A stretch of 64,000 nucleotides of DNA. Source: an uncultured Prevotella sp. (lineage in GTDB: Bacteria > Bacteroidota > Bacteroidia > Bacteroidales > Bacteroidaceae). Below the pieces are notes generated by a model. That model was not told the DNA's origin and searched no databases. It saw nothing but the letters and a program-made list of their open reading frames with translations. Position 1 is the stretch's first letter, and each line of letters begins with the position of its first letter. Shown piece by piece: positions 5,775-50,001 of the stretch. The stretch is taken from the NCBI GenBank assembly GCA_964554115.1, contig CAZKMT010000002.1:26629-90628 (forward strand), read 5' to 3'. The position numbers and the translations under genes are program-made.

Positions 5775-6599
5775 TCACTCGCTGGTTATTTCCTTGCACT
5801 TCTTGATGTATTTCCTCGCCGTATCGGCTTCCTTGCTGTCGGGATATTCATTCAGGAAGCCATAGCATTCGTCTTCGGCGTCGCGATAGCGTTCCATACG
5901 CTTGTCCTCCACGCTCTGCTCCGCCAGTTCGAACTTGCTTTTCATTATGAGCACGGCAAAGTCTTCACGCATTGTGGTGTAAGGATAGGTGTCCAAGGCA
6001 CTCTGGGCAGTCACTATGCACGCCTCAAAGTTCGAGCCTCCGCTTGTGCAATTGCCGAAATAGTCGCCAAGGTCATAGTAGAGTTTGGCCGAAAGATATT
6101 CCTTCATCACCAGCTTGTCCTGCAAATCAAACAAACGCTGCTGTGCAATCGGGCGCAGGCTTGACTCGGGATACAGGTCGAGAAACTCTTGGAAAGCATT
6201 TATCGCACCGATGGTCGGAGTCTGGTCAAGGCGCGGTTCGGGGGTGCTCCGGTAGAGAGCCTGCCCAATGTAATAAGATGCCTGCTCCGCGTAGATGCCC
6301 TTTGGATATGACGAATGGTATTTCCTGAAAGTGGCAGAGGCACTCTCGTAATCACGGCTGCTGAACTCCGCCATTCCCAGCATGTAAAGACATTCCTCTC
6401 CGCTGTCCGTTCCCTTCATGATGGTTACAAGCTCCCTGAGCAACGACTCGGCTTGAGTGAACTTGCCCCGGGCAAAGCACTCTTTCGCGTACTCATATTT
6501 ATAGCTGTAATCAGACGACTTGTAAACTCGGTTGAACTCTGTGGAGCAACCACAGCTTAGAGCCGCAATGCATAACATGATGGATATCCTTATGTTCAT
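5775..6599 (-). CDS. bamD: Outer-membrane assembly lipoprotein BamD
   Basis: Lipobox, TPR-like helices, SPEPRLDQ-like TPEPRLDQTPT, AKLYYDLG. Confidence 0.9.
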   Translation of the reverse strand: MNIRISIMLCIAALSCGCSTEFNRVYKSSDYSYKYEYAKECFARGKFTQAESLLRELVTIMKGTDSGEECLYMLGMAEFSSRDYESASATFRKYHSSYPKGIYAEQASYYIGQALYRSTPEPRLDQTPTIGAINAFQEFLDLYPESSLRPIAQQRLFDLQDKLVMKEYLSAKLYYDLGDYFGNCTSGGSNFEACIVTAQSALDTYPYTTMREDFAVLIMKSKFELAEQSVEDKRMERYRDAEDECYGFLNEYPDSKEADTARKYIKKCKEITSE

Positions 6600-8759: not shown

Positions 8760-8923
8760 CCGGGCAAAAGCTCTCACGAACATCAGCAAAACGCCCATGC
8801 CACGGGCAAGCCTGCAAGGCCGCTTCTCTCACACCGGCTCGCCACATGCCATGATTAATATTTTTATGTTAAAGGCCGCCATCGAGCCGCTCTCACATAA
8901 CCATCTGGCAACCAACGCATTGC

Positions 8924-9033
8924 AAAATGTGTCGTTTTAGCCTGCAAAACGCCCCGTTTCAGAGCGCGAAACAGGCCGTTTTGGCTCGCGAAATGGCCTG
9001 TTTCGCGAGCCAAAACGGCACAAGCCGAAAATC
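8924..9033. repeat. 22-bp-period quasi-palindromic array, copy A
   Basis: Units AAAATGTGTCGTTTTAGCCTGC / AAAACGCCCCGTTTCAGAGCGC / GAAACAGGCCGTTTTGGCTCGC / GAAATGGCCTGTTTCGCGAGCC / AAAACGGCAC...; 19-bp perfect inverted repeat 8975-8993/9001-9019. Confidence 0.85.
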
Positions 9034-9185
9034 GGGTCGCGGCAGACCGTCGTTAGCTGCGTATTTGCATGTATGGGCAATCCGCTGACATTCATATAAA
9101 ACAATGTTAATCTGTGTAATCTGTTCCACTAATAATCGGATATTTTGTACTTTTGCCACAACAAACAAACAGTGTCTTTTTAGCT

Positions 9186-10109: not shown

Positions 10110-12455
10110 ATGAAGAGAATCCTCATCGCACTCTTGTGCGTTGCCACTGCCGCCGCAAAGGCCCAGACATACAACGAAATAGACGCCACGGGGCAAATCA
10201 CAGAGCAAGACGAATACAGCAGCAGAAACTTCAACAAGCACAGCAAAGACACAACAACGCACAAGGAAATACCGAGAGGAATATACGTGTGGACCGTGGA
10301 CCGCAGGTTTGGCGACACTACGCCGGCCATTGTGGACACCATGCAACACATGTACATGAACTCCATATTCAACACGGGGCTTTACGGAGAATACAACACG
10401 ACAGGCAACAACTATACGGCAAGGCAAAGCCGCATAGTGATAGACCGCCCGCTGACGGACCAATTCATCTTCACGCAGCCGTACAGTTACATAATCAAGC
10501 AGCCCGACCAACTGCACTTCACCAACACCCTGTCGCCAATAACCAACATATCATACGACAACTGCGGCAACAAGACAAACGGCGAAGACCACATCGACGC
10601 AAAGTTTGCCGTAAACGTCAACAAGAAGTTTGGCTTTGGCTTCGATATCAACTATGCCTACGCACGCGGATATTATGCCAACCAGAGCACATCCCACTTC
10701 GGAACGACGCTCTATGCCTCATATCTTGGCGACCAATACAACATGCACGCCATGTTTTCCACTTATCACCAGAAAGTGGCCGAGAACGGAGGAATAACCG
10801 ATGACAATTACGTAACCCACCCCGAAAGCTTTGACGACAGCTACACTGACAGCGAAATACCGACAATACTGGAGGAGAACTGGAACAGGAACGACAACAT
10901 TCACGTGTTCCTGACGCACAGGTACAGTCTCGGATTCTACCGAATGGAAAAGATGACCGAGGCCGAGATAAAGGCAAGGCAGTTTGCAGCAGAATCGAGA
11001 AAGGGAAAAGAAGAGGAAGAGCGAAATGGCGACATGATGGCACCCATGGGGCGGCTCAACGGCGACATGATGTCCGCCGCCCCGACAGGACGTCCCGAAG
11101 GAGCTGTCATCGCGGGGGATGAGCCCACCGACGCAACGGACGTGCCAATAGACACTACCCGCATCAGCGTGGAGTCTCTGGCGCAGATGGACAGTCTCAG
11201 AGCCGCAAAGCAGCGTCAAGACTCCATCGACGCCACCATGAAGCGTGTGTTTGTGCCCGTAACCAGCTTCATCCACACCATCGACATAAACAAATACGAC
11301 CATATTTACCAGGCATACAGCTCACCCGACGACTATTACGCCAACACATACTACACCAACAACGAGGACATGAGCTATGGCGGCGACTCCATTTATGACC
11401 GCACCAAGCTCCTGTCAGTGAAAAACACTCTGGCAATAGCGTTGCTCGAAGGATTCAACAAATACGCGAAAGCAGGCTTGAAAGTGTTCGCGAGCCACGA
11501 GCTGCGCCGGTTCGACATGCCGGAAACATTCCAAAGCGGCGATTACACACTGGCCCGCATGGCCAGATGGAACGAGAACTCAATAAGCGTTGGCGGGCAG
11601 ATAGTCAAGACACAAGGCAATACCTTGCACTATAACGTCCTGGCCGAGACGTGGATTGCGGGCGAGGATATCGGACAACTGAAAGTAGACTTCAACACTG
11701 ACGTCAACTTCCCGCTCTTCGGCGACACCGTAACCCTGGCCGCAAAGGCTTACTTCTACCTCTTAAACCCCACTTTCTACGAGCGGCGTTACCACTCCAA
11801 GCACTTGTGGTGGGACAATGACTTGAGCAAGGAGACGAGGTTTCGGGTAGAGGGAAGATTCTATTATCCCAAGACAAACACCAGTTTGCGCGTGGCCATA
11901 GAGGAAATAAAGAACTACACTTACTTTGCCATGTCCTACGACGCGACGACTGAAGCCCGAACCAACCTGACGGCAAGGGTAAACCAGCACGGAGGAAACA
12001 TCAACCTGCTCACGGCACAGCTGAAGCAAGATTTCAGGATAGGGATTTTCAACTGGGAAAACATCATAACTTACCAGAACTCGACGGACCAAGAAGTGCT
12101 GCCTGTGCCCGCCATCAACCTGTTCACCAACCTATACATCAGATTCAAAATAGTGAATCAGCTCACCGTTGAGCTTGGGGGCGATGGCTATTTCTTCACC
12201 AAATACTATGCCCCCGACTTCATTCCGCAGCTCAACCAGTTTGCCGTGCAGGAAAACAGCGAAAGCCGCGTGGAACTCGGAGGCTATCCTTTCTTTGATG
12301 TCTACGCCAACTTACACTTGAAGCGCACCCGTTTCTTCGTGATGTACAGCCACGCCACGGCCGGAACCGGCAACAGAATGTATTTCCTCACGCCCCACTA
12401 TCCGATGAACGGGAGCATAATCCGCTTCGGCCTGTCATGGAACTTCTTCAACTAA
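10110..12455 (+). CDS. Putative outer-membrane beta-barrel porin (Bacteroidetes putative porin family)
   Basis: Signal peptide AAAKA|QTY, amphipathic beta-strands, C-terminal RFGLSWNFFN. Confidence 0.85.
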   Translation: MKRILIALLCVATAAAKAQTYNEIDATGQITEQDEYSSRNFNKHSKDTTTHKEIPRGIYVWTVDRRFGDTTPAIVDTMQHMYMNSIFNTGLYGEYNTTGNNYTARQSRIVIDRPLTDQFIFTQPYSYIIKQPDQLHFTNTLSPITNISYDNCGNKTNGEDHIDAKFAVNVNKKFGFGFDINYAYARGYYANQSTSHFGTTLYASYLGDQYNMHAMFSTYHQKVAENGGITDDNYVTHPESFDDSYTDSEIPTILEENWNRNDNIHVFLTHRYSLGFYRMEKMTEAEIKARQFAAESRKGKEEEERNGDMMAPMGRLNGDMMSAAPTGRPEGAVIAGDEPTDATDVPIDTTRISVESLAQMDSLRAAKQRQDSIDATMKRVFVPVTSFIHTIDINKYDHIYQAYSSPDDYYANTYYTNNEDMSYGGDSIYDRTKLLSVKNTLAIALLEGFNKYAKAGLKVFASHELRRFDMPETFQSGDYTLARMARWNENSISVGGQIVKTQGNTLHYNVLAETWIAGEDIGQLKVDFNTDVNFPLFGDTVTLAAKAYFYLLNPTFYERRYHSKHLWWDNDLSKETRFRVEGRFYYPKTNTSLRVAIEEIKNYTYFAMSYDATTEARTNLTARVNQHGGNINLLTAQLKQDFRIGIFNWENIITYQNSTDQEVLPVPAINLFTNLYIRFKIVNQLTVELGGDGYFFTKYYAPDFIPQLNQFAVQENSESRVELGGYPFFDVYANLHLKRTRFFVMYSHATAGTGNRMYFLTPHYPMNGSIIRFGLSWNFFN

Positions 12456-15493: not shown

Positions 15494-15725
15494 TCCAAGC
15501 AAACTGTCCGAGACGTTTACGTCTGCAAAATTACACCATTCCATCCAAAAAGCAGACAACGCCACACACATTTTCTGCCGCAACGCCGCGGCACGGCAAC
15601 AGCGCACCAACGTCGGCTCGGGCGAAAGCGGACGTTCGGCGGAAAAGGAATGAATGTCCGCGATGTTCCCGACAAACCGTCCGCACCATTTTCTTGTGCA
15701 TCCGCCCTGCCGTGAAAGCCTGTTG

Positions 15726-15949
15726 TTTTGTAAAGATATTTCGCAGTGCAAACCGTCTTTCCGACGCATTCCCGCAACATCCCGCAAGCATTTGGTTTCC
15801 AGACGGTTTGCGACATGCGCCGTTTCACACCGCGAAATAGCCCGTTTCGGAGGGCGAAACAGGCCGTTTCATGCCGCGAAACGCACCGAATTGCAAGGCA
15901 AAACGGCACGCATGACGCCGCAGGCTCATGCTTTGTAAACATTATTTAC
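15726..15949. repeat. Dispersed ~224-bp intergenic element, copy B (22-bp array at 15812-15921)
   Basis: Reverse complement is collinear with 38393-38615; 21-nt exact terminal match CTGCGAAATATCTTTACAAAA. Confidence 0.85.
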
Positions 15950-16073
15950 CCGAAAAACGCAATTCATTTACATTCCCAATCATTGCTTACAGCCGCACAA
16001 AACACGCCCCGCCGGAAGCGGCGGACGCGCACAGCCAATCGAAAGATGCCGAACGACAGCGCAACGGATGGGG

Positions 16074-17861
16074 TCACAACGGCGCGCAAGCGTCGGCAAG
16101 CCACTGACGGTCGTCCTCGTCAAGCAACGGGGCGAGCCGAGAATATACCGTGCTGTGGTAACCGTCGAGCCATTCGCGCTCCTCGGCGGTGAGCATCCCG
16201 ACGATTATCGGAGCCTTGTCGATGGGGCAGAGCGTGAGAGACTCGAAAGAGAGGAAACGCCCGAACTCGGTTTCCGCATGGGGAACGATGAGCAGGGTGT
16301 TCTCCGTCCGCACGCCGAAACGCCCCGCGAGGTAAATGCCCGGCTCATCGGTGACGGTCATGCCAGCTCGCAACGGCGCCGGCTTCCACTCCATGCGTAT
16401 CTGGTGGGGGCCCTCATGCACATTGAGATATGAGCCAACGCCGTGTCCAGTGCCATGCAGATAGTTCAAGCCCTCGCGCCACAGCGGCTCGCGAGCCAGC
16501 GCGTCTATCTGCGTGCCCGAAGCGCCATCGGGAAACACCGCGCGCTCCAAGGCTATGTGAGCCTTGAGCACGAGGGTGTAGACGCGCCGCTGCTCATCGG
16601 TGACCGGCCCCAGGGCGATGGTGCGCGTTATGTCTGTGGTGCCGTCGAGATACTGTGCGCCACTGTCGATGAGCAACAGTCCCTCGGGACGCAGGGGCAC
16701 ATCGGTGTCATGCGTCGGCTCGTAATGAACTATGGCACCGTGAGCCTGATAGGCGGAAATGGTGTCGAACGACAGGCCGCGGTAGAGCGGCTGAGCGGAG
16801 CGCAGCTCCTCGAGGCGCGCGCTGACGCTAAGCTCGGTCTGTCCGCCGGCCTCGACGGCGGGGCGCAGCCAGTGCAGGAAGCGCACCATGGCCACGCCGT
16901 CGCGGAGCATGGCGCGGCGGAAGCCCTCACGCTCAGTGGCATTCTTCACGGCTTTCATGGCCGGCACGGGCGACGGGCCGTCTATTATCTCCGCCCGTTC
17001 CACCGCCTTGTACAGGGCATGGCAGGTAGTGGCAGAGTCCATCAGTATGTTGTACTCCCCATAACCGCGCAACGCACGGGTCACATCGCCATAAGGAGCG
17101 GCGGCCACGCCGATTGACGAGAGGTAGGCACTGACCGCAGGCGACAGCTTGGCGGTGTCGGCAAAGAGTGTCGTCCGGTCGCCCTCCATGAGCAGGTAGG
17201 CCACGAACACGGGGTTGCAATGCACATCGGAGCCACGCAGGTTGAGCGTCCAGGCAATGTCGTCGAGAGCCGACATCAGCATCCCATAGGCATGGCGGGC
17301 ACGCAAGGCGGCGCGAATGCGCTCCATCTTCGCGGCAGCCGCCTCACCGGCATACTCCAGAGGGTAGAGCTGTATGGATGCCGACGGCAGCGGCGGACGG
17401 TCTGCCCAGATGACCGCGAGGGGGTCGAAGTTAGTGCGGAGCGTGATACCGCCCTGTCCGCGCAGGCCGGCCACGAGTTCCCTGACCGTGGCGGCGGAAG
17501 CCACGGTGCCATCGATGCCCACCTCCGCGCCCTCTATGCGTGACAGTTTGCGGCCGAGCCATTCCACCACTGACGGCGTGCCGTCGAGACCCTCGCGCAT
17601 AAGCTCATAGCCACTGCCGCGCAAGGCTTCCTCGGCGGCAATGAAATAGCGCGAATCCGTCCAAATGGCGGCCTCATCCATGGTGACTACGGCCGTGCCG
17701 GCAGAGCCGTCGAAACCGCTGACATACTCGCGCCCTTTCCAGTGATCGGGCACATACTCCCCACAGTGCGGGTCGGTGCTTGGAAATATGAAAGCGTCGA
17801 GACCCTCGCGGCGCAACGCCTCGCGCAATCCTGCCAATCTGTTGCTTATCGTATCGCTCAT
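16074..17861 (-). CDS. Xaa-Pro aminopeptidase (M24B, aminopeptidase P family)
   Basis: DPHCGEY, SGFDGSAG, WTDSRY, IDSGAQYLDGTTDITRT, HGTGHGVG, VHEGP, DEPGIY; -7 element at 17888-17895. Confidence 0.95.
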   Translation of the reverse strand: MSDTISNRLAGLREALRREGLDAFIFPSTDPHCGEYVPDHWKGREYVSGFDGSAGTAVVTMDEAAIWTDSRYFIAAEEALRGSGYELMREGLDGTPSVVEWLGRKLSRIEGAEVGIDGTVASAATVRELVAGLRGQGGITLRTNFDPLAVIWADRPPLPSASIQLYPLEYAGEAAAAKMERIRAALRARHAYGMLMSALDDIAWTLNLRGSDVHCNPVFVAYLLMEGDRTTLFADTAKLSPAVSAYLSSIGVAAAPYGDVTRALRGYGEYNILMDSATTCHALYKAVERAEIIDGPSPVPAMKAVKNATEREGFRRAMLRDGVAMVRFLHWLRPAVEAGGQTELSVSARLEELRSAQPLYRGLSFDTISAYQAHGAIVHYEPTHDTDVPLRPEGLLLIDSGAQYLDGTTDITRTIALGPVTDEQRRVYTLVLKAHIALERAVFPDGASGTQIDALAREPLWREGLNYLHGTGHGVGSYLNVHEGPHQIRMEWKPAPLRAGMTVTDEPGIYLAGRFGVRTENTLLIVPHAETEFGRFLSFESLTLCPIDKAPIIVGMLTAEEREWLDGYHSTVYSRLAPLLDEDDRQWLADACAPL

Positions 17862-18016
17862 GACTTTAATTTGAAAATTAGACTTCACAAAGGTATTGAT
17901 TTTCAGAATTAATAACAAATTAAAGACAGCATAAACACACGCCATCCGCTTTTTTTTCTTAACTTTGCGCTGGATTTGAGTAATCAGGAACGTTTAATCC
18001 TTATATAAAAACAAAT

Positions 18017-20240: not shown

Positions 20241-20593
20241 ATGTCCGTGGCGGAACGCCGACACGCGCCACCACAAACGATTGTTCCCACCGAGGGAATG
20301 GCACAAAAGGCCATATCCGCCCCCAGTGGGAACAATGTCTTATCATAGACAGAACATGATGGCGGAGCCTGCGCCCCGCCCCTTTGTTGTCTCCTTTCCG
20401 ATTTTCCGCAGGACTGCTCCCGCCCCATGCTTTCATCGGCGCGCTGTGCAGCTCCGCATTGCCCTTGCCGCCATCGCGACATGCCGGGAACAGCCATACG
20501 GCTGACTTGAAACCGACCGCCGGTTTTCCCTATGAACAAGGCCTGGGACAGCCGAATACGACGATGCCACACGTCCGCAGGCAGTCAAGCCGG

Positions 20594-20923
20594 TCAGGCC
20601 TCGCCCTTGCCAACGTTGAAAGGAGCGATGGTACGCGGCCCAGCTGCACCCTGCGCCGGAACCTTTATTTGGCCGAACTCGCGCTCATAGCGCACGATGT
20701 TTTCTTGCAATGCCATGAGCAGTCGCTTGGCATGTTCGGGAGCCAGTATCACACGGCTCTTCACCTGCGCCTTCGGCACGCCCGGCAGTATGCGCGCAAA
20801 GTCGAGCACAAAGTCGCTGCTCGAGTGTGTTATTATCGCGAAGTTGGCATACTCCCCTTGTGCGGTTCCCTGCGGCAGTTCTATCTGCAACTGCCCTTGT
20901 TGTTTGTTTTCGTTCTCGTTCAT
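20594..20923 (-). CDS. DUF3467 family protein
   Basis: GEYANFAIITHSSSDFVLDF, KSRVILAPEHAKRLL. Confidence 0.88.
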   Translation of the reverse strand: MNENENKQQGQLQIELPQGTAQGEYANFAIITHSSSDFVLDFARILPGVPKAQVKSRVILAPEHAKRLLMALQENIVRYEREFGQIKVPAQGAAGPRTIAPFNVGKGEA

Positions 20924-21501: not shown

Positions 21502-21819
21502 TACGCATGGCATGACAATATTTATTATATATATAAAATATTGGCTAACCGGAATAAGGATGATGCGGCACGGCTGTTTGCACATGAAGCCCTGGCATAA
21601 GCAAGTGACGGATGCAACGGCCAACCCTGACAGGAAGATGTGAGTTGTCACAGACGAAACGCACAAAGTGCTCTTTTTACGACTGACGGAAGCCTAAATG
21701 GTCACCCGCACAGGCGGAGTGACACAGCTTTTTGCCGTGCGTTGGCACGTCGCATCGCCGTGCGCGCAGACGACCGGCCGCCCATGAGGGAAACATACAA
21801 TCATATAAAATTACATACA

Positions 21820-24800
21820 ATGAAGAAAACATTTATCTTTACGTTGATGGCATCGGCCATGGTGGGTGCCGTCATTGCAGGAAACAACCGACCGGCCGAC
21901 ACGGCCACAGCGTTTCCAAGTGGCAACGGCGCGGAAAGCGCACAGACAACGCCGCTCGCCCTTGCTGACGGCACCGCCGACTCGCTGAGCGCGGTGCTCA
22001 CCGACGGGTCGCTGCCGCTCACCTTCCACAACGACGACACATATCCCTGGACAGTGGAAGACGGGTACATACAAAACGGGAACTACAACGTGAGAAACTC
22101 CGCCTCGGAGTTTTCCGCCACGTTCACCATCGAAAAGGCATCGAAATTCTCGTTTGACATGTACGTACACCGCAGCGACAATTCCACGAGCAGCAATACC
22201 TACCACTACCTGTACTTCTACATCAACGGCAAACAATACCTGTCGCAAAACAATCAGACGGACTGGGGTCGCACGTGTGTACTTCTGGAACCGGGCACAT
22301 ACACCCTCAACTGGGTGGACACCATCTCCAACTCATCAAACACCTACTACAGCCAAATTCGCAACATGGAGCTGTCGTCAGACTGGTTGGACGTGGAGCT
22401 GGCTTCACCCGGCACGCTCGGAGTGGAGGTGCTCTACAAGGTGGACGTGCTCACCGACGTGGAACTGCTCAAGGTCAAGGGCACACTTAACTCCACCGAC
22501 TGGACGAACCTAAAGCAGATGAGCAACCTCGTGGGCCTGGACCTCTCGGAAGCCTCGTTCGACGAAGTGCCCGAGTACGCATTCGACGGTCTGAACTACC
22601 TGTCGGGCGTGAAGCTGCCCGAGGGCATGACGTCCATCGGGCAGTATGCTTTCCGCAATACGCAGATATTAAACATCGAGATTCCTGCCTCCGTAACCTC
22701 CATCGGGCAATACGCCTTTGCAGGCACGCGCCTTGCCGGAATAACCTTTGCCGAAGGCTCCCGGCTCACCACCATAGGTTACAGTGCATTCAGAGAATGC
22801 TCCTCGCTTGAAGAATTTATAATGCCGAACACGGTGACAACATTGCAAACTTCTTCAAGCAGCTCATATACTTTCTATAACTGCACTTCGCTAAAGAAGC
22901 TGCATTTCTCCGATGCCTTGAAGACAATAAACCAAAACACTTGCTACGCATGCACCGCCCTTGAAGACTTGCACCTGCCCGACAGTCTCGAAACCATAAA
23001 TGCTTATGCTTTCTACAATACAACGTCGCTCCGCAAGGTGGACTTCCCGGAGACATTGCGGACAATAGAGTACAATGCGTTCGAATATTGCGGGGTTGAT
23101 TCCGTCAAACTGCCTGTAAAATTATCGTCTTTGGGTAATAATGCTTTTTATCGTTGCACTAACCTCAAATACGTGGAACTGCCGTCATACATAGAAAGCT
23201 ATAATTACAATTTCAGTAACTGCACAGCCATAGACAAGGTAGTGTGCCGCTCGGCAACGCCTCCGTCGGTCTCTAACGACCCGTTCAATGGCCTGTCAAA
23301 GAGCAACGCCACGCTCGTGGTGCCATCGTTCGCCGTTGTCAACTACAAGCTCGACACATACTGGTATCAGTTCGGCTCCATTGAGGAGGGCGACGACATC
23401 GACTACTGGAAGATAGCCGCCGCGCTGTCGCTCACCAACAACCGCCGCATGGAAGGCAAGCCCGACGTGGATCTCTACTTCGGAGGGCAGTTCACCGTGG
23501 GTGGCAACGCGCCGATGGAGACGGCACAGTTCAACATCTACATAAACGAATCCAACCCCGGACGACTGCTCAACGACTGCCCCGACTTCACGGCCGACAG
23601 CATCAACACCTACTATTCGGTCAGCGCCAACCAATGGTACTTCCTTACTCCCCTCCACGACGTAGACCTCTCGAAAGTGTCGCACAGCGCAGACGCCTCG
23701 TATGTGTTCCGTTACTATGACGGCGACAGCCGCGCCACCAACGGCACGGGCAACAGCTGGAAGAACGTGGAAGACGGATGGCTGCGCGCCGGGCAGGGGT
23801 ACATATTCCAGTGCAACGCCGCCGGCACCTTGACCCTGCCCGCCGAAGCCGAAGCCCATGCGCAAGTAGTGAACACTGAAGACGTGACCACGGCCCTCGC
23901 CACCCACGAGGCCACCTCATCGGCCAACAGGAGCTGGAACTACGTTGGCAATCCCTACCCCGCCTACTATGACGTATATTACATGGACTTCACCGCCCCC
24001 ATCACGGTGTGGACGGGCAGCACTTACAAGGCGTACTCCATCGTTGACGATAACTTCGTGCTGCGCCCCATGCAGCCGTTCTTCGTTCAGAAGCCGGATG
24101 CAGTCGACAACATAGTGTTCCACAAAGAGGGCAGACAGCTCACCTCTGAGGTGCAACGGGCATCGTATACCAAGAAGCTCGCAGCCGCAAGCTCCGACCG
24201 ACACATATTTAATATAACGATAAGCGGCGACGATGGACTGACCGACGAGACCCGTGTGGTGGTGAACGCCGATGCCGACAATGGCTATGAGATAGAACGC
24301 GATGCCGCCAAGTTCATGAGCATGGAGGAGGGCGTACCGCAAATATTCACCACCGACGCACAAGGCAACAGCTACGCCATCAACGAGAGACCGCTGGCCG
24401 ACGGCCGCGTGGCAGTGGGCTACAGCGCGGGCAACGCCGGCTTCTACACCATCAGCGCAACGCGCGCCGACGGCACGGTGACACTCACAGACGGTCTGCT
24501 CGGCAAGAGCGTCGACCTAACGTCGCAAGACTACACGTTCTACACCAACGCCACCGCCGGCACCAACCTGTCGCGTTTCTCCATCGTGATTGGAGTGAAC
24601 AGTTCGGAGACCACCGGCATAGACTCCGCCACAGACAACAACGCCGTGAGCGTGACCGGCGCGGCAGGGCGCATCGACATATCGGCTCACCACGGAGCTT
24701 CCGTAGCCATCTATGCGGCTGACGGCCGATGTGCCTACAGGGGCAGCATCGACGGCACGTCGTCAAGCATTGCCCTGCCCAAAGGCCTGTACATCGTGAA

Positions 24801-24837
24801 CGTCGATGGACACGTGGGTAAGACATTCGTTTATTAA
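21820..24837 (+). CDS. BspA-like (TpLRR) leucine-rich-repeat surface protein with T9SS CTD
   Basis: Signal peptide; repeats like LPEGMTSIGQYAF, IPASVTSIGQYAF, FPETLRTIEYNAF; SWNYVGNPY module; CTD ...LPKGLYIVNVDG. Confidence 0.88.
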   Translation: MKKTFIFTLMASAMVGAVIAGNNRPADTATAFPSGNGAESAQTTPLALADGTADSLSAVLTDGSLPLTFHNDDTYPWTVEDGYIQNGNYNVRNSASEFSATFTIEKASKFSFDMYVHRSDNSTSSNTYHYLYFYINGKQYLSQNNQTDWGRTCVLLEPGTYTLNWVDTISNSSNTYYSQIRNMELSSDWLDVELASPGTLGVEVLYKVDVLTDVELLKVKGTLNSTDWTNLKQMSNLVGLDLSEASFDEVPEYAFDGLNYLSGVKLPEGMTSIGQYAFRNTQILNIEIPASVTSIGQYAFAGTRLAGITFAEGSRLTTIGYSAFRECSSLEEFIMPNTVTTLQTSSSSSYTFYNCTSLKKLHFSDALKTINQNTCYACTALEDLHLPDSLETINAYAFYNTTSLRKVDFPETLRTIEYNAFEYCGVDSVKLPVKLSSLGNNAFYRCTNLKYVELPSYIESYNYNFSNCTAIDKVVCRSATPPSVSNDPFNGLSKSNATLVVPSFAVVNYKLDTYWYQFGSIEEGDDIDYWKIAAALSLTNNRRMEGKPDVDLYFGGQFTVGGNAPMETAQFNIYINESNPGRLLNDCPDFTADSINTYYSVSANQWYFLTPLHDVDLSKVSHSADASYVFRYYDGDSRATNGTGNSWKNVEDGWLRAGQGYIFQCNAAGTLTLPAEAEAHAQVVNTEDVTTALATHEATSSANRSWNYVGNPYPAYYDVYYMDFTAPITVWTGSTYKAYSIVDDNFVLRPMQPFFVQKPDAVDNIVFHKEGRQLTSEVQRASYTKKLAAASSDRHIFNITISGDDGLTDETRVVVNADADNGYEIERDAAKFMSMEEGVPQIFTTDAQGNSYAINERPLADGRVAVGYSAGNAGFYTISATRADGTVTLTDGLLGKSVDLTSQDYTFYTNATAGTNLSRFSIVIGVNSSETTGIDSATDNNAVSVTGAAGRIDISAHHGASVAIYAADGRCAYRGSIDGTSSSIALPKGLYIVNVDGHVGKTFVY

Positions 24838-24855
24838 TCCATAAAATCTTTCGCC

Positions 24856-27800
24856 ATGAGAGGTTTCAGATACTTACTCCTCATGCTGGCACTGGCCGTC
24901 AGTGCCGGCATGAGGGGGCAATACAACCCGACGAACCCTGCCGAGCCGGGCGTGTACTACACGCTTACGCTGCAGGCAACGCCGGCCAACGGTGGCAGCT
25001 TCAACATAGGCACCACCACTACCTACTCCGAAGGCACGAGCGTGTCGCTGCGCGCATACACAAACTCCAACTTCAAGTTTGTGGCTTGGGAGCAGGACGG
25101 AGAGGTGGTGTCGACGTCAAGCTCGTTCACATACATCATGCCGGCCCGCAATGTGACGCTCGTGGCGTGCTACGTCTACGACCCATCAAGTCCGGCAGAG
25201 CCGCCCGAACCCGACATTCCAGTGTATTCGCGGCTCACTCTCTCGGCCTCGCCCGCCGCCGGCGGCTACTTCAACATTTCGAGCGGCAACAGCTACGAGG
25301 TAGGCTCGCAAGTGAGCCTGCGGGCATACAACAACTCCAACTTCATGTTCGTAAGCTGGACGGAGGACGGGGAAGTGGTGTCAACGTCAAGCTCTTTTAC
25401 GTATGAGGTAACCGAAGGCGACCACCACCTTGTGGCCAACTTCAGCTACTCGCCGTCAAGTCCGGGCGAGCCATCGGAACCGCAGGTGCTCCACACCCTG
25501 CAACTGCAAAGCTCACCCGCCGACGGCGGTTACTTCAACACGTCGAGCGGCAACTCTTATGCGTCGGGGACATCGGTGTATTTGCGGGCTTATTCCAACC
25601 AGTGGTACACGTTTGATAATTGGACATGCAACGGCGAGGTGGTGTCAACAGCCGCCAGCTTCTATTTCACCATGCCCGATGCCAACGTCACGCTCGTGGC
25701 CAACTTCACATACAACTACGACCCGAGCAATCCGAGTGAGCCGAGCGAACCGTCGAACGGCAATGTGAACATTTACGGAATGACGGAAAACGGCGCAAGG
25801 GGGCAGGCCATAGCCTATCCCATCTACCTTGAGAATCCGGTAGACATCACCGGCATGGCGGTAGACATACAGTTTCCGGATGGCTTCGCCGTGGACGCAG
25901 ACAACGTGCAGCTGGCCGGACGCGCCACCGGACACGAGATGACCGTCAGCGGCCTCGACTCCAACACATACCGCTTCGTGCTTCTCGGCACGACTAATTT
26001 CGACGGCAACAACGGGAAAGTGTTTGACGTGATGGTGACCATCCCAGACACGGCCACCACGAACCACAACTACCCCGTGACGCTTTCGCACGGCGTGGCA
26101 CACACCGTAGACGGCAACCAAGAAGCCGTGTCGGCGCGCAGCGGATATATATATGTGGAACAGCCGTCGGAAGACGGACTCTATGCGCGCTTCTCTTACG
26201 ACAAACTGTTGGGGAGGGTGCAGTTTACCAACCTGTCATCGGAAAAGGCACTGCGCTATGAGTGGGATTTCGGCGATGGCACCACGAGCACCGAAGACAG
26301 TCCGCTGCACACCTACGGCACGCCGGGCTATTATGACGTGACGCTGACGGCCTACGGAGAGTATGGCGAAGACGCGGCCACAACGACAGTGCTCATCAAC
26401 GACAGCGCGTATTGGACTGTCGGCGGAACATTCATACTTGCCAACGAGATGAGGGGCGTGCGCTACTTCGACACAGTCGATTCGCTGCTGGCCTTTGTGT
26501 CGGCAGCCACATTGGCCGACAACATCACGCTCATGGTGGAGGCGGAATCATCTTTCCCGCTCGCCATGACCGACACAAACAAGCACAGGCTGGCCGCCTT
26601 GGCTGAGGAAATGGCAACGCAATCGCTGTCGCTGAACATCTCGAAGACAGGCGAAGGTGCCAACCCGACGATAGCTTTCGGCGACAGCGGCGACGAACTG
26701 ACAGCGGAACATATCGAACTGTACAACAAACTGGGTGCATCGGCCACGTGCTACGGTGTCACGACCAAGCTGTGCGGCATCGAATACAACCCTGCCATGA
26801 TAAATGCCATTGCCGACCAGACCGTAAACTCGGGTGTGCCCACGGCGGAAATTGATTTCTCGCCCATCAGCAATGATCTCACTTTCGCATGGACACTGAC
26901 CACCACGCCCGATGAGGAAGCCGTGACGGGCTACAAAATGTCGGGCGAGGGAAACATACCGTCAATGACAATAGACAACATCGGCGAAGAGGATGCCGTG
27001 TTCACTTACATGATATCGGCATCCCATGACAGCCTGACATTCTGCGAGTTCAGCCGTTCAATAACGGTGAGGCCGGGCAGCGCGATACTGGAGCAGGCCG
27101 AGTGGGATCTGCTGAACACCCTGCGCGAGGTGCTCGTTGACGGCGGGTGGCAAGAGCCGTGGGACATGACATGCGGACCGGAAGGCGCATCCACACTGCG
27201 TGGCGTGACCGTGGAGCGTGGCCACGTGACGGGCATCGACCTCTCAAGTGAGAGCATCGGCGGAGGCTTCCCCACCGTGGCCCTGCAACTTCCACGCCTC
27301 GTCACACTGTCGATGGCCGACAACGACATGACCGGCGACGTGGCGAAAGACATATTGCAAGACATGACCATATACACCGCCGCCAACCCCGGATTCAAGT
27401 CAACGCTGCGCAGCATCGACATATCGGGCAACGACTTTACAGGCAACATAGGGTTGCTGTCCGCATTGTCGTCTGTATTCGCCGACCTTGAGGAACTGGT
27501 GGTGAGCGGCAACGCCGTATGCGAAGTGTCGCCGGCACTGCCGCCATCAATCACAAGGCTCGACCTGACGGGACAACGCACCGACAGCATGATAAGCGTA
27601 GACTTGGTGAACTTCGACTTCGAGGCCGTGGCGGCGCAGTTGCCGTCCATAATGCTTTATGACCACGGCGCACAGGCGTACATGGACACGCCAATGCTGA
27701 GACTCACCAACCGCCAGCCCGGAGAGACGGGAGCACAAGACGGCTATTGGGGCATGGACATCGATGCCACGACGGGAGAGCCCGTGCTTGCCGCCATAAG

Positions 27801-28587
27801 CACAAACGCCTACGAGGGACAAAGCGGCGACACGGTGTTCGTGTCGTATCCTTGCGCAGCAACTGAAGTGGCCGACTGCCATTGCCTTGCCACCATCAAC
27901 TTTGAGCCAGGCGATGCCAACTTCATCGGGGGCGTGACAGCCGCCGACCTTCAGGCAACCATACTCTACGCTTTCGGCGATTACACAGGCAGGCCATTCA
28001 ATCTGACAGCCGCCGACACGTACACCGATGGGACAATAAACGTGCAAGACGTGGTATGCACGGTTGACATACTCCTCTCCGCAACCTCGGGCGACAGCGA
28101 AACCATGCGAAATGTCCAAAAAACGAAAGTCGGTGCAACGACCTCTTCGGCCACCGAAGCCGATGCCTGCATCTACATAGACAACGGAAACGTGATTCTC
28201 AAATCGCCCGTCCCGGTGGCTGCAATCAGCGTCACTGCCTCCGGCAACATTTCATGGACGCTGGACAACTACGGCATGGCGCAGGCTTCGGCAGGCGCGA
28301 ACCTCGTGGGCTACTCACTGACGGGGCATACCATCCCGGCGGGAACTGCCGTGATAGGCTCATGCCGTGGCGAAGCCGCGATACGCAGCACCACGCTGGC
28401 CGATGTGCAAGCCATGCCAATAAGCGTCTCGGTTGGCGAATCCACGCCGACATCCATTGACGGCGTGCAGACAGAATACGGCGGATTGCGCATATTCAAC
28501 ATGAACGGAGTGGAAGTGAACGGTCTGCAAAAGGGTGTGAACATCATACGGAAAGACGGACGTTCCATAAAGGTGATAAACAAATAA
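24856..28587 (+). CDS. Multidomain T9SS surface protein: 3 InlB-B-like repeats, cohesin-like, PKD, LRR, dockerin-like, CTD
   Basis: Repeats flanked by YxPxxPxEP; PKD WDFGDG; LRR IDISGNDFTG; dockerin GDAN...ADTYTDGTINVQDV; CTD IFNMNG...KGVNIIR. Confidence 0.82.
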   Translation: MRGFRYLLLMLALAVSAGMRGQYNPTNPAEPGVYYTLTLQATPANGGSFNIGTTTTYSEGTSVSLRAYTNSNFKFVAWEQDGEVVSTSSSFTYIMPARNVTLVACYVYDPSSPAEPPEPDIPVYSRLTLSASPAAGGYFNISSGNSYEVGSQVSLRAYNNSNFMFVSWTEDGEVVSTSSSFTYEVTEGDHHLVANFSYSPSSPGEPSEPQVLHTLQLQSSPADGGYFNTSSGNSYASGTSVYLRAYSNQWYTFDNWTCNGEVVSTAASFYFTMPDANVTLVANFTYNYDPSNPSEPSEPSNGNVNIYGMTENGARGQAIAYPIYLENPVDITGMAVDIQFPDGFAVDADNVQLAGRATGHEMTVSGLDSNTYRFVLLGTTNFDGNNGKVFDVMVTIPDTATTNHNYPVTLSHGVAHTVDGNQEAVSARSGYIYVEQPSEDGLYARFSYDKLLGRVQFTNLSSEKALRYEWDFGDGTTSTEDSPLHTYGTPGYYDVTLTAYGEYGEDAATTTVLINDSAYWTVGGTFILANEMRGVRYFDTVDSLLAFVSAATLADNITLMVEAESSFPLAMTDTNKHRLAALAEEMATQSLSLNISKTGEGANPTIAFGDSGDELTAEHIELYNKLGASATCYGVTTKLCGIEYNPAMINAIADQTVNSGVPTAEIDFSPISNDLTFAWTLTTTPDEEAVTGYKMSGEGNIPSMTIDNIGEEDAVFTYMISASHDSLTFCEFSRSITVRPGSAILEQAEWDLLNTLREVLVDGGWQEPWDMTCGPEGASTLRGVTVERGHVTGIDLSSESIGGGFPTVALQLPRLVTLSMADNDMTGDVAKDILQDMTIYTAANPGFKSTLRSIDISGNDFTGNIGLLSALSSVFADLEELVVSGNAVCEVSPALPPSITRLDLTGQRTDSMISVDLVNFDFEAVAAQLPSIMLYDHGAQAYMDTPMLRLTNRQPGETGAQDGYWGMDIDATTGEPVLAAISTNAYEGQSGDTVFVSYPCAATEVADCHCLATINFEPGDANFIGGVTAADLQATILYAFGDYTGRPFNLTAADTYTDGTINVQDVVCTVDILLSATSGDSETMRNVQKTKVGATTSSATEADACIYIDNGNVILKSPVPVAAISVTASGNISWTLDNYGMAQASAGANLVGYSLTGHTIPAGTAVIGSCRGEAAIRSTTLADVQAMPISVSVGESTPTSIDGVQTEYGGLRIFNMNGVEVNGLQKGVNIIRKDGRSIKVINK

Positions 28588-28600
28588 ACCACAAAGCATT

Positions 28601-31600
28601 ATGCAAACAAGACTTTTGATGACAACGATATGCGCCATATCACTGAGCGTGATGGCAGCCTTTGCGCAGGGCAACACACTGTCTGTGCCCGACGTGTCGG
28701 TGGCGCAAGGCCGCACAATCGACTTGCCAATAAACATGGACAACACTTCCGACGTGGTGGCCGTGCAGTTCACGCTATTCGTTCCGGAGGGAATAACTAT
28801 CGACCCTTCGTCTGCCGCAGTGTCAGAACGTGCCGAAAGCCACACCGTGACAATGAAAAAGGTGGATGCCAACGAATACATGGCAATGGTGTTCTCGGCA
28901 GACAACAGCGTCATTACGGGACGCACGGGAAAGCTGATAACCGCCAAACTCACGGCTGCTACAGACATGTATGAAGGCACTGAGCTGCAGTTTGTGCTCA
29001 AGGACGTGATACTCAGCGCACGCGACGGGTCAAACATCGTCTCCGGATACAGTGCCGGCAAGATAACAATCACAAAAACAGCCGACCTCGAAGTATCGGA
29101 CGTGAAAGTCAATGCCACTTCCGTCACTCCCGGCGGCACACTGCCGGTGTCATGGCAGGTAAGCAATGTAGGGCAGGTGGCCACAGATGCCGGATGGAGC
29201 GAGCGGGTGTTCCTTGACGCTCCCAACGGGACATCTAAACTGATTGGCACAATATACTATACCGATATCTTGTCGGCAGGCGGCACCGTTAGCCGCTCTG
29301 CGGAGCTGACCGTGCCACAACAGTTGGGCATCAACGGCGAGGCGACCGTGAGGGTCAAGCTCTCTCCGGCCAGTGACACAGGCGAGCCCTCATGGATGCT
29401 GGCCAACAACGAAGCTTCGGCACCGACATCAATATCCGTGCGCAAGGAACTTGTGCTATCGCCGGAAACCATTCGTGTGGACGAAGAGGCGCAAACGGTG
29501 CGTTTCAAGCTCTCCAGGACGGGGAGCACCGCCTCAAAAGAAACATTCACCGTACAACCATCGACAGACAACAGGGTGACGCTGCCATCATCGGTAACCA
29601 TACCATCGGGACAGTCGAGCGCTTATTTCACAGCCTCCATCACACCGAACGCCGTCATCGACGCCGACTCTGTTGTGGCCGTGGCCATCTCGGGAGACGA
29701 CTATCCGACCGTGGAAGGACGCATAGTGATTGACGATGACACGAAGCCTGCGCTCTCCTTGTCGTCAGAAGCGCAAGATGTCACCGAGGGCGGAAGCCTG
29801 ACGCTCACCATATCCACACAAAAAGCAGTAAGTGAAAACACCGAGATACTGCTGTCGTGCGACTATCCGACACGCTTCAGCCTGCCCTCATCGGTAGTAA
29901 TCCAGGAGGGCAGTGCAAGCGTGGAAGCCACGGTAAACGCCATCGACGATGACAATCCCGATGTGGAACAAGTGGTTACTTTCACCGTCTCTGCCGCAGG
30001 CTACGAGTCAGCATCCATGCTTACTACGCTCGTTGACAATGACATTCCCACGCTACAGATAGAGCTGGAGCCTTCCGCCATATCGGAATCGGCCGGCCCG
30101 ATAGCCGTTACGGCAAGGATATGGCGCACGGACAACACCGACCGCAAGGTGACAATAAACCTATACGATGACTCCGATGGTTGCATATATTACCTGTCGC
30201 AGTCTGTCGAGATGGCCGCCGGACAGACTGAGGTCACTGTGAACCTGGGGCCCATCGACAATAACGACGTTGACGGCGAACGCACATACAACGTCTCAGC
30301 CGCCGTCTACATAGCGTCGTGCAGTTGCAACGCCGGCGGCGGCACGGCAGGGGGAGCGGTCAGTGCGCCGCTTACCGTATATGACGATGATGGCCCCGCC
30401 CTCGCCTTGGCAGCATCATCGTCAGCCATTGGCGAGGGTGGCGAACTGACAGTGACCGTAAGCCGCAATACTGACACGTCATCGCCTCTTGACGTTGCTT
30501 TCGTAAGTGACCACGATGACGGCATCGACTATCCCCGGTCAATTACCATACCCGCAGGCCAATCATCGGCATCCGTGGCAGTAAGCGCAGTCAACAACGC
30601 GGTAACGGGCGATGGGTTCGTGGCCACGTTAACCGCATCGGCCGAGGGGCACTCCAAAGCTACCGTGATGTTCTCTGTAAGCGACAAGACGCTTCCTGAC
30701 GCACAGATTACATCTTTTGACGTTGCGGAAAACGAAGTTGAGGCCGGCGGCACTGTCACTGTAACGCTGACATTGGCAAACACAGGCTCTTACGAACTTC
30801 CGGAGATGACAAAGACAGGCATATATGTAAACTCTGAAACAACGCCTACAGCCGTCATCTACCTCCAGTCGCCACTCGCGGCCGGACAGTCCGTACAGCT
30901 CAACCGTGAGATAACGCTGCCCTCGTCCGTCGGAACGCACCGTATCTACGCCGTCGCAAACGATGGGCATGGCGTAAACGAACTCCTTTATACCAACAAC
31001 AATTCTACCGTGGCGCAAGTGCAGGCATTGTCGCCGTTTGCAGCAACGGCCTCCACCGACAAGGCTGTCTACGAAAAAGGTGAGGAAGTGCATATATCAG
31101 GCAGTATAAGCGGCGGAGATGTGGCTGACAAGAGTGTCGAAGTTTACGTCATAAATGATGGCTACCGCCACACAATCAACACAACAACCGATGCAAACGG
31201 TGCCTTTGCCGTTGCCTACACACCATTTGCCGCACAAGTCGGACACTTCGATGTGGGTGCATGTTATCCCGGCGAAGGCACGACTGATGCCCTATGCTCG
31301 TTCGACATCTACGGCATGGAGCTCGCCAACACGGGTTACGTCACTGTGGAAACCGTGCCGGGCGAGCCTTATTCCGGCACCATTAAAGTCACCAACCGTG
31401 GTAGATTGCCATTGACTGGCATCAGAGCCACTGTGACGGGACAGCCCGACAATTGCGACGTGCAACTGACATGCCCCGAGACAATCGGCGGTGGGCAGGA
31501 CTTTGCAATCGACTATGTGATTACCGGAAGCGAGCCAAGCGCGGGCACCGATTGGGAATTGATAACCCTCAACATAGAGTCGGCCGAAGCCCCGGCCATA

Positions 31601-38319: not shown

Positions 38320-38392
38320 CGCCGGGCAGGAAAGAAAGCCGCACTGCGGAATTGCCGCTCCGTAGCACTGCATCGGCAGGGCTGCCGCAACA

Positions 38393-38615
38393 GTAAACAA
38401 TCTTTACAATATGCCGCAGGCAAATGCGGTTTGCGCCGCTTTGTGTTCCAAGACGGGCCGTTTCGCTTCATGAAACGGCCCGTCTTGCGTTGCGAAACGG
38501 GTCGTTTTGGAACGCAAAACGGCATGTATTGCATACTCACTGACAGTCAGACGGTTACAGCTTTGCACAGAATGGAGGGCATGTATCAGTTACGCTGCGA
38601 AATATCTTTACAAAA
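38393..38615. repeat. Dispersed ~223-bp intergenic element, copy C (22-bp array at about 38428-38537)
   Basis: Units AAGACGGGCCGTTTCGCTTCAT / GAAACGGCCCGTCTTGCGTTGC / GAAACGGGTCGTTTTGGAACGC / AAAACGGCAT...; 15-bp perfect inverted repeat 38450-38464/38472-38486. Confidence 0.85.
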
Positions 38616-38700
38616 AAGCATCAGAATGCGGTGACATGGCGGGGCATCGCAAGGCTACTTCCGGATTTGCCGCAGCCACAGTGGCTGCGGCATGAGGGCA

Positions 38701-38762
38701 CAAAAAGGCCTCCGCCCCGTTACCATGAGAGGCAAAAGGAGCGGAGGCCTAACTATCTTTTC
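38701..38762. terminator. Probable bidirectional terminator between metY and the M23 gene
   Basis: AGGCCTCCGC(38706-38715)...GCGGAGGCCT(38741-38750) with 5' A-run and 3' T-run. Confidence 0.7.
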
Positions 38763-49171: not shown

Positions 49172-49587
49172 AGTAAACGGTTTTTATAAAGGTTGAAAGT
49201 TGTTGTGTCATTATGTCATTTGGTCTCCACAAAAATAGACAAAATTCGGATTAACGCCAAGTAAAAAGGCGAAAAACTTTGTCTTTTTGCTTTCTTTTTG
49301 TTATGTCGCCTTGATTCCCTGAAGAGTGCGAAACGGCATTGGGCCGCGATGCGCCCGCGGAAGTCGCGCGAAATGGCGCGCCGCTCGCCACAGGGCATAG
49401 CATCCCGGACGGAACAAACGCGCGGTCGGTGTCGGCACTGACGGCCAATCCGGCATTGAGGCGACAAAGCCGGAACGGGAAAGTGCGCTGCCGGGATTCA
49501 CCTTTTAACATTTGATTTTTGCGCAAAATAGATGTCGCCGAGACGGAAAAAGCGAATGAAAACGCCTTGTTCGTGGCAACGCGGAAC

Positions 49588-49675
49588 GAAACATACCGTT
49601 TTACGCTGCGATATGGGCCGTTTGGCATTGCGATATGGTGCGTTTTGCGATGCGATACGGCCTGTTTCGCATCGT
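49588..49675. repeat. 22-bp-period array, copy D
   Basis: GAAACATACCGTTTTACGCTGC / GATATGGGCCGTTTGGCATTGC / GATATGGTGCGTTTTGCGATGC / GATACGGCCTGTTTCGCATCGT; about 43/54 nt ungapped match to copy B reverse complement. Confidence 0.8.
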
Positions 49676-50001
49676 TTTCATCTATACATTTACCTGTTCT
49701 ATCGCCATCTTGCGGATGTCTTGGGCAACGAGGCATTGCACTACCATTGCATATCGACAATTGATTACCTGACAATCAAGCCGTTAAGATTGCACGCCCA
49801 TTTTCGTGCCATTTGCGGACAAAGGCTTTGTTCTTTTGCCGGACGCGAATCTCGCAAGCCTTTTGTACCACGATGTTTAACGTTTTTAACCATTGATAAC
49901 CATGTGGATTGGCGTGCTTGCGGCCGGCGCGTTGAATCCAAAAAACAAACCCATTCGATGCGGAATCGCCCAAATGGAGAGCGTCACAGCCGGAAAGCAA
50001 T

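Follow-up and report, generated by a model that had tools for sequence, protein, structure and literature searches.

Dispersed intergenic modules in the window and in related genomes

The window, i.e., the whole 64-kb stretch of DNA analyzed here, contains four copies of a short element, all of them intergenic and, as stated in the first-pass annotation, located next to unrelated housekeeping genes. Copy A (array coordinates 8930-9017) has uvrB, a DUF4468 gene and a porin gene as neighbors, copy B (15818-15905) is adjacent to genes for an Xaa-Pro aminopeptidase ("pepP") and a GH43 glycosidase, copy C (38437-38524) to genes for an O-acetylhomoserine sulfhydrylase ("metY") and an M23 peptidase, and copy D (~49594-49681) to gdhA and an ABC transporter gene. 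As for the earlier remark on the lack of a nearby transposase or integrase, Pfam searches of ~45 window ORFs agree with it, having detected no transposase, integrase or Y1 enzyme. Spurious ORFs are placed on the modules by public gene callers.

The reverse complement of 15726-15949 (copy B) can be aligned with 38393-38615 (copy C) with a single 1-nt gap, as originally noticed (MAFFT alignment of the reverse complement of 15700-15975 with 38370-38640). The end CTGCGAAATATCTTTACAAAA is indeed identical in all 21 positions, the other end, GTAAAyAATsTTTACAA, is identical in 15 of 17 positions (scored previously as about 15/18), and the central part in 64 of 91 (previously about 62/90). Both linkers had been described as near random in sequence with preserved length. 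The length is preserved and the short linker is unconserved, with 2 of 23 identical positions, fewer than expected by chance, whereas the long linker retains 45% identity (32 of 71 positions) and so is not fully random. With up to two mismatches, AATATCTTTACAA occurs four times against 0.54 expected, a count that none of 100 shuffles reached; with up to three mismatches, GTAAAYAATSTTTACAA occurs five times against 0.23 expected. An nhmmer profile built from B and C recovers both A (8896-9027, E=6e-20) and D (49591-49671, E=9e-9) in the window; taken together, its matches to these copies, at E values from 1e-8 to 1e-20, span ~8896-9033 and ~49577-49674.

Related genomes were sampled through contigs that encode close homologs of metY, pepP and uvrB, followed by a profile search, so that the sequence covered consists of 64 kb of the source genome and ~300-350 kb of relatives; the closest public proteins share 78-90% identity, and those with a named source are from Prevotella or Xylanibacter, which makes the source a high-GC, poorly sampled member of the Prevotellaceae. 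A census of the window together with related Prevotellaceae contigs yielded 15 copies in ~206 kb, or about one per 14 kb, every one of them intergenic: four in the window, three in L035, two each in L037, L050 and L051, one each in L044 and L047, and none in L041. The ~50%-GC contigs L058-L063, from lower-GC relatives, hold further copies. The copies in relatives had been overlooked by a crude half-site density count and were found by the profile search. Four copies (D, L037b, L037c and L050a) are degenerate, and the polarity of D, L037c and L050a is uncertain. The family is therefore not limited to B and C, which are confirmed as real members of a dispersed, apparently unnamed family of intergenic modules in a Prevotellaceae clade.

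The initial impression that this is not a named element agrees with all database searches. No Rfam family matches the window and four related loci at the gathering score; at E-values up to 10, copy B has no match and L035 has chance-level microRNA or hammerhead matches only. BLAST searches of plasmid and phage collections returned no match, and a two-unit pattern produced four chance matches and no arrays in IMG/VR. The 18-mer GCGAAATATCTTTACAAA gave 34 single, chance-like matches in unrelated phyla in a genome collection whose representatives do not include the source species, and the full 21-mer gave one chance match, to a eukaryote-like contig, in a metagenome scan. Fragments of the locus are present in three sequencing runs only, all of bird-gut DNA at a depth of ~2-3, and in none of the RNA sequencing runs.

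Several loci have retained their copies across species. In particular, the site downstream of pepP (copy B) is occupied in L050 and L051, with pepP 78% identical, the site between uvrB and the DUF4468 gene (copy A) is occupied in L058, L060 and L062, with uvrB 88-90% identical, and a copy upstream of GH43_rel is common to four species groups. The pepP-downstream copy has opposite polarities in the window and in L050/L051, and the copy upstream of gdhA is present in the window and L037, and absent from L035, L044 and L041. Units within one array are more alike than orthologous units, as in D with its GATAyGG units and L047 with its GCCCGTTCT units, which suggests concerted evolution within arrays. 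The 21/21 L site common to B and C is missing from the pepP-downstream copies of other species. The polarity switch, the variable presence near gdhA, the likeness of units within arrays and the L site shared by B and C only all point to turnover or concerted evolution. At two loci, comparison of three to five strains per species revealed no insertion polymorphism; strain pairs with ~98.4% identity do not differ in the presence or absence of copies, and between them the element diverges at least as fast as its surroundings.

Module anatomy and spacing

A well-preserved module is ~180-230 bp long and consists, in this order, of an L site, a leader, exactly four head-to-tail 22-bp units, a spacer of ~25 bp and an R site. 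Element polarity is taken here to point from the side with the long leader to the side with the short spacer, which puts B on the plus and C on the minus strand. The features in the window are:

8855..8875, plus strand: copy A (subfamily 2, see below), L2 near-palindrome TTAATATTTTTATGTTAAAGG, with the start of TATGTTAAA exactly 65 nt ahead of the array
8930..9017, plus strand: copy A, four-unit array (22 nt each), in which units 3 and 4 make up a perfect palindrome of ~18 bp
9042..9079, plus strand: copy A, R2 block GCAGACCGTCGTTAGCTGCGTATTTGCATGTATGGGCA, with the start of ATTTGCA exactly 45 nt past the array
15726..15746, plus strand: copy B, L site TTTTGTAAAGATATTTCGCAG, 21/21 identical to the L site of C; TGT 89 nt before the array
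15747..15817, plus strand: copy B, leader, 45% identical to that of C and ~22 nt (one unit length) longer than those of relatives
within 15747..15817, plus strand: copy B, 11-bp stem GCAAACCGTCT...AGACGGTTTGC in the leader
15818..15905, plus strand: copy B, array of four 22-nt dyad units (CCGTTTy-N7-GCGAAAy), delimited by the unit matrix, which is negative on the flanks
15906..15930, plus strand: copy B, GC-rich 25-nt spacer, identical to other copies in 5-12 of 25 positions, with conserved length
15931..15951, plus strand: copy B, R site CTTTGTAAACATTATTTACCC; TGTAA-N7-TTAC dyad at 15934-15949; TGT 28 nt after the array
38393..38409, minus strand: copy C, R site, GTAAACAATCTTTACAA when read on the plus strand; the minus strand carries an exact TGTAA-N7-TTAC
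38410..38436, minus strand: copy C, spacer from the array to the R site
38437..38524, minus strand: copy C, array of four 22-nt units, with a perfect 15-17-bp hairpin/palindrome at ~38451-38486
38525..38594, minus strand: copy C, leader
38595..38615, minus strand: copy C, L site; TGT 88 nt before the array
49594..49681, no strand assigned: copy D, degenerate array upstream of gdhA; ends poorly preserved, polarity uncertain

Tandem Repeats Finder detects a 22-nt period in the array, the unit of which reads GGCCGTTTy-N7-GCrAAACG (consensus GGCCGTTTnGCnnnGCnAAACGGCCC). Every unit bears a CCGTTT/AAACGG dyad, and each unit-unit junction is itself a palindrome, AAACGG(S)CCGTTT; together, these dyads place A/T tracts at intervals of 10-12 bp, separated by GGCC-rich segments. 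A position matrix of the unit gives four consecutive high scores in each good copy and negative scores directly on either side, so that the array is a fixed set of four units rather than a variable minisatellite. The degenerate copies have three units; in D, GATAyGG replaces GAAACGG in three units.

In B and C, the L and R sites are same-orientation copies of one type of AT-rich dyad site with the core TGTAA-N7-TTAC; in element polarity, the R site reads TTTGTAAACATTATTTACC for copy B and TTGTAAAGATTGTTTACTG for copy C. The 206 kb contain six exact TGTAA-N7-TTAC sites, each of them located within 120 nt of an array, compared with zero to four such sites anywhere in shuffled sequence. This confinement indicates that the end sites are part of the element and excludes the end motif as a general genomic target site. 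The sequence ATAAAACAATGTTAATC to the right of A (~9096-9112), which was considered as an element end, was rejected as well because it belongs to the conserved promoter region of the DUF4468 gene.

The well-preserved modules fall into two subfamilies. Subfamily 1, with TGTAA-N7-TTAC end sites, includes B, C, the GH43_rel-upstream copy of four species groups, L051b and L051c. Subfamily 2 includes A, L035c and two L060 copies, and combines a left site that is a 20-bp palindrome, TTTAACAT-TTTT-ATGTTAAA, with the right block GCAGAC.GTC.TTAG...ATTTGCA.GTATGGGCA. The organization of the array as exactly four 22-nt units, the direct orientation of the ends and the assignment of A to a second subfamily were all absent from the first-pass annotation.

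Six copies of subfamily 1 have R at 27-28 nt from the array, with spacers that are identical in only 5-15 of 25 positions. L precedes the array by 66, 75, 78, 79, 88 or 89 nt, and the L-to-R distance is 180, 181, 181, 181, 182, 193, 204 or 205 nt. In L051b and L051c, the array is ~10 nt nearer to R and ~10 nt further from L, and the total is still 180-182 nt. In subfamily 2, L2 is located at exactly -65 and R2 at exactly +45 from the array in four of four copies, from four loci in three genomes, with linkers that are 29-50% identical. Linkers as divergent as these imply many substitutions per site, so that lengths which remain constant or change in steps (~11-12 and 22-23 nt) point to selection on spacing. 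The three length classes rest on about a dozen independent copies, and gain or loss of half or whole repeat units would give the same classes (steps of ~11.5-12 bp). The original suggestion of selection on geometry extends to copies in at least six other genomes, and the view that spacing is under selection while the linker sequence drifts is strongly supported by these comparisons.

Candidate functions of the module

The first-pass annotation offered three readings, namely a nucleoprotein site, a non-autonomous mobile element and a structured RNA. The first of these fits best, the structured RNA lacks covariation, and the classical non-autonomous transposon failed the inverted-repeat and target-duplication tests. 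We tentatively favor, at somewhat less than even confidence, the reading of the element as a double-stranded DNA module that assembles putative DNA-binding proteins according to a looping or synaptic logic, and that serves either as a recombination skeleton or as an architectural site of the host. This reading is preferred because of the phased 22-bp dyads, the conservation of sequence rather than covariation and the discrete end-to-end distances. The element would then act as double-stranded DNA, with the four in-phase dyads, two helical turns apart, cooperatively binding a dimeric protein along one face of the helix; alternatively, the array could be an anisotropically bendable 88-bp segment. 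The bend in the DNA would bring together the putative proteins bound at L and R in a loop or synapse of ~180-205 bp that might tolerate changes of length in steps of about one helical turn. Such a complex might be the cis-acting skeleton of recombination or transposition, which would explain the spread of the family, or instead a host architectural or regulatory site.

Several observations count against the nucleoprotein reading. Neither in the window nor in the gene calls for the fetched related loci was a binding protein, recombinase or transposase identified, and the existence of degenerate copies is what would be expected if many copies were dispensable. Further points on this side are the rate of change of the element between the ~98.4%-identical strains, which equals or exceeds that of its surroundings, the strong single-strand folding (z of about -5), the fact that the length steps are explicable by unit gain or loss, and the small number of independent copies.

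The folding bears most directly on a possible but unlikely alternative, under which the module is a hairpin repeat similar to REP/BIME or BOX elements that works as single-stranded nucleic acid. At the RNA level, hairpins in transcripts would be 3'-UTR stabilizers or processing/termination sites; at the DNA level, hairpins in single-stranded DNA at replication would allow a trans-acting HUH/Y1 enzyme to spread or homogenize the element via hairpins and GTAA-type ends. Folding is indeed far below shuffled sequence, with z of -5.1 for the minus strand of B and -5.3 for the plus strand of C (-2.2 and -3.4 for the respective opposite strands) and of -4.6 to -7.1 for arrays alone. Copies A (units 3 and 4) and C contain long perfect palindromes that are unique to each copy, unit 3 of L035c remains perfectly paired with both arms altered, and the abundance, the exclusively intergenic position, often downstream of gene 3' ends, and the likeness of units within arrays are all REP/BIME-like. 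Against this stands the lack of covariation beyond column composition. The covariation term of RNAalifold is 0.04 kcal/mol for nine copies, and for 43 units, 76.5% of the cells of the dyad are paired, compared with 74.7 +/- 1.2 after shuffling; the observed value is reached by 46 of 500 shuffles. Pairing, with no clear excess over column composition, is explained by the conserved palindromic sequence, and in these alignments the unit sequence itself, not merely the ability to pair, is shown to be conserved. A strand bias is not clear either from the G.T and A.C mismatches (34 vs 21). The polarity of the modules relative to neighboring genes is inconsistent, with B antisense to both neighbors and the pepP-downstream copy flipped in L050/L051. 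The spacer has no significant hairpin in five of six copies, which also excludes the reading of the spacer and R site as a terminator. Finally, the GTAG/CGTC tag of the described REP superfamilies (PMC3733652) is absent, the number of units is fixed at four, unlike in REP clusters, and no RAYT (Y1 transposase) was found either in the window or in the gene calls for ~300 kb of related loci.

A classical non-autonomous transposon, i.e., a MITE like BrickBuilt that is mobilized by a transposase in trans, with the repeats as a passenger minisatellite or transposase sites and most copies as inert relics, is improbable. The modules are multi-copy, short, free of ORFs and exclusively intergenic, share the leader-repeat-tail modularity of BrickBuilt (PMC4596501), include degenerate copies, and differ between lineages in polarity at one locus. 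Comparison of orthologous loci, one of the checks proposed at the outset, showed that related species differ in the presence or absence of the gdhA-upstream copy. The other part of that check was negative, with no duplicated flanking bases at B, C, A or the subfamily-2 copies. The ends are direct rather than inverted: the best inverted match of L and R is GTAAA only, and L2 shows no similarity to the reverse complement of R2. The number of repeats is fixed at four compared with 1-22.8 in BrickBuilt, and the IS5-type inverted repeat of BrickBuilt, GAGACCTTTGCA, is not present in the sequences of A, B, C and D. The same loci keep copies across deep species splits, and the strain comparisons at two loci, described above, are free of insertion polymorphism.

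We regard as quite improbable a gene for a structured non-coding RNA of ~200 nt that would possess a promoter and terminator of its own and fold into four hairpins serving as a protein sponge or scaffold. The strong predicted folding is compatible with such a gene, as is the better folding of one strand in some copies (-46.8 vs -33.3 kcal/mol for the minus strand of B, -42.6 vs -28.9 kcal/mol for the plus strand of D), and the Prevotella-only palindromic candidate RNAs HMP2_6893 and HMP2_905 could, by their description, belong to this family (PMC8040213). The favored strand, however, differs between copies relative to element polarity, the covariation and Rfam searches were negative, and the combination of stems conserved in sequence with variable loops is the opposite of what is typical of protein-binding RNAs. 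Promoters were sought at the end motifs; these contain TTTG but do not conserve the TA of TAnnTTTG, the -7 box of Bacteroidetes, so that a promoter reading is excluded; a sigma-70 scan of these motifs found nothing, and terminator-like matches are sporadic only. An inverton with inverted repeats flanking a promoter was not found either, given that the end sites are direct and there is no internal TAnnTTTG promoter.

It is very improbable that the modules are remnants or decoys of a partition centromere or of a replication origin of the iteron type: the four in-phase 22-bp dyad repeats beside AT-rich sites resemble the layout of iteron origins and some centromeres, but the modules occur about once per 14 kb rather than once per replicon, have no adjacent rep or par gene and no similarity to plasmid or phage records, and are conserved at housekeeping loci.

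Returning to the double-stranded DNA module, a more specific version of it, which we consider unlikely but concrete, is a self-contained looping or recombination unit of an undescribed kind. A putative protein would bind the four phased palindromes and bend the ~88 bp of the array so that the directly repeated end sites, ~181, 193 or 205 bp apart, could synapse, yielding a minicircle or an architectural node. In the first case, the module might be excised and re-integrated as a ~200-bp minicircle, which would explain dispersal without inverted repeats or target duplications. In the second case, synapsis would create a chromosomal architectural node, of which there might be a few hundred per Prevotella genome.

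Little of the non-coding DNA of Prevotellaceae, which rank with the most abundant bacteria of the gut, has been charted. With a module every ~14 kb, a genome would contain on the order of a couple of hundred, and the phased palindromes, the fixed or stepwise end distances and the free linkers appear to be the signature of a protein-DNA machine. The partner protein, once found, could reveal a new mechanism of mobilization, a nucleoid-organizing system or a global regulator in the phylum. In practical terms, the family could be employed as a marker of assembly breakpoints and rearrangement sites, as a target for strain typing, and as a mask in screens for RNA motifs and small ORFs.

Comparison with known systems

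Tandem repeats of 20-22 bp beside an AT-rich segment are characteristic of iteron origins and centromeres, e.g., lambda ori, the R6K gamma origin and pSK41 parC. The modules resemble these sites in having tandem direct repeats, of 17-22 bp in such sites and four units of 22 nt here, in helical phase, and differ from them in the presence of four copies in 64 kb, the housekeeping neighbors and the absence of an adjacent initiator or par gene.

The accessory sequences of cer/psi, lambda attP and the GalR-HU repressosome are composite sites of ~200-240 bp in which spacing and helical phase outweigh linker sequence. The modules would resemble them in these respects and in having a bent or wrapped segment between or beside core sites. 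These systems, however, are single-copy functional sites with defined neighboring genes and known proteins, whereas the module recurs about once per 14 kb. It also lacks the 28-bp Xer core (11-bp arms around a 6-bp center), since the L and R dyads have 4-5-bp arms around 7 bp. The L2 site contains ATGTTAAA, which we take to resemble the XerD arm of E. coli, but its arms abut with a center of only 4 nt.

The BOX elements of Streptococcus pneumoniae have the structure boxA-boxB(n)-boxC, with zero to eight copies of boxB and mutually complementary ends, and no transposase is known for either these or the modules. They share with the modules the conserved end sections around tandem central repeats and the dispersed, intergenic location. 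The modules differ by having exactly four units, a 22-bp phasing and ends that are not a complementary pair, and the two are unrelated in sequence.

The BIMEs of E. coli are bound by architectural proteins (IHF, gyrase). Like REP/BIME elements and REPINs, the modules are abundant, short, imperfect extragenic palindromes that are often found after gene 3' ends, in clusters, and are long retained at their loci. In contrast to the alternating, variable clusters of REP/BIME elements, the units are arranged head-to-tail in a fixed number of four, with conserved end sites at set distances. The tags that define the described REP superfamilies, GTAG or CGTC (PMC3733652), are missing from the unit consensus, and no RAYT gene is located nearby in the window.

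Among known elements, BrickBuilt of Porphyromonas gingivalis comes closest in architecture as well as in taxonomy. It has been described as a MITE that contains a 23-nt minisatellite, with IS5-type terminal inverted repeats and 1-22.8 repeats, and is confined to P. gingivalis and P. gulae (PMC4596501). Both are dispersed intergenic elements of Bacteroidales without ORFs that are composed of a leader, a tandem repeat (22 vs 23 nt) and a tail, with some partial leaders or tails. The Prevotellaceae modules differ in their direct dyad ends, exactly four palindromic units, fixed spacings and occurrence in several species or genera, and the two share no sequence. The combination of a fixed unit number with a fixed geometry that these modules appear to possess is, so far as the comparisons made here go, not described for known dispersed intergenic repeat families. 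Finally, a microbiome-wide screen reported the palindromic candidate RNAs HMP2_6893 and HMP2_905, of 139 and 205 bp, which are found only in Prevotella, near a uvr gene (PMC8040213), and to judge from this description, both could be representatives of the same module family.

Copy A and the second subfamily

Copy A of the dispersed intergenic module is a member of a second subfamily and not a decayed form of copies B and C, which represent subfamily 1. The left end site of this second subfamily is a 20 bp palindrome, TTTAACAT-TTTT-ATGTTAAA, the right block is 38 nt long, and the placement of the two is base-for-base identical in all four copies, which come from four different loci in three genomes:

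Copies of the second subfamily (L035 and L060, loci of related Prevotellaceae)
8855-9079, window, copy A
20557-20790, L035
about 17677-17902, L060
about 21605-21830, L060

Copies B and C and their surroundings

The 25-nt spacers of B (15906-15930) and C (38410-38436) are identical at only 2 of 23 positions. The reverse complement of the 9-nt word GCCTGCGGC of the B spacer is present at nearly the same position in the C spacer, and each spacer contains a hairpin centered on the same alignment column.

A module is found 3' of pepP (Xaa-Pro aminopeptidase) in three lineages (window, 15726-16074; L050, 11872-12130; L051, 11857-12100). Its orientation relative to pepP in the window is opposite to that in L050 and L051, and the next gene is SusC-like in these two relatives versus a hypothetical gene followed by GH43 in the window. 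Because both the polarity and the downstream gene differ, this module is located at a rearrangement breakpoint.

Copy C is placed between metY (O-acetylhomoserine sulfhydrylase) and a GC-rich hairpin (38714-38750) bordered by runs of A and of T. This hairpin, in the interval where metY and the M23 peptidase gene converge, looks like a bidirectional intrinsic terminator. Between B and C, three neighboring genes (21640-36715) encode very large putative surface proteins (1065, 1243 and 2704 aa) with BspA-type LRR, InlB B-repeat, PKD, CARDB and CarboxypepD_reg domains; internal DNA repeats with spacing of 132 and 264 nt are present in these genes at 25248-25686.

The motif of the right end site of subfamily 1 also occurs alone, without an adjoining array, at 58259-58317 (CTAAACAATGCTTACAA, 2 mismatches), 9 nt past the stop codon of an M23/LysM peptidase gene and next to a terminator-like hairpin with a 12-bp stem. 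This solo motif could be a chance match or a remnant.

The gdhA upstream region

The direct repeat AATGACAyAATGACAC, located directly upstream of gdhA and downstream of its TAnnTTTG box, is conserved in every relative that was compared, which makes it a candidate site for the regulation of glutamate dehydrogenase:

Direct repeat upstream of gdhA
about 49199-49221, minus strand, window
15500-15530, L035
16840-16865, L037
5420-5445, L041

Gene calls and published candidate RNAs

The modules are overlapped by genes called in public contigs and by mechanical ORFs of the window, none with a Pfam match; these calls are probably spurious, produced by the GC-rich repeats:

Calls over modules
5824-6309, L037, called gene
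5854-6306, L047, called gene
12109-12393, L051, called gene
12059-12202, L058, called gene
15517-15942, minus strand, window ORF
38016-38540, minus strand, window ORF
49251-49775, minus strand, window ORF

A published screen reported two Prevotella-only candidate structured RNAs, HMP2_6893 (139 bp) and HMP2_905 (205 bp), whose loci, close to a uvr gene, overlap in opposite orientation (Fremin and Bhatt, 2021; PMC8040213). These candidates could be the member of the module family that lies next to uvrB.
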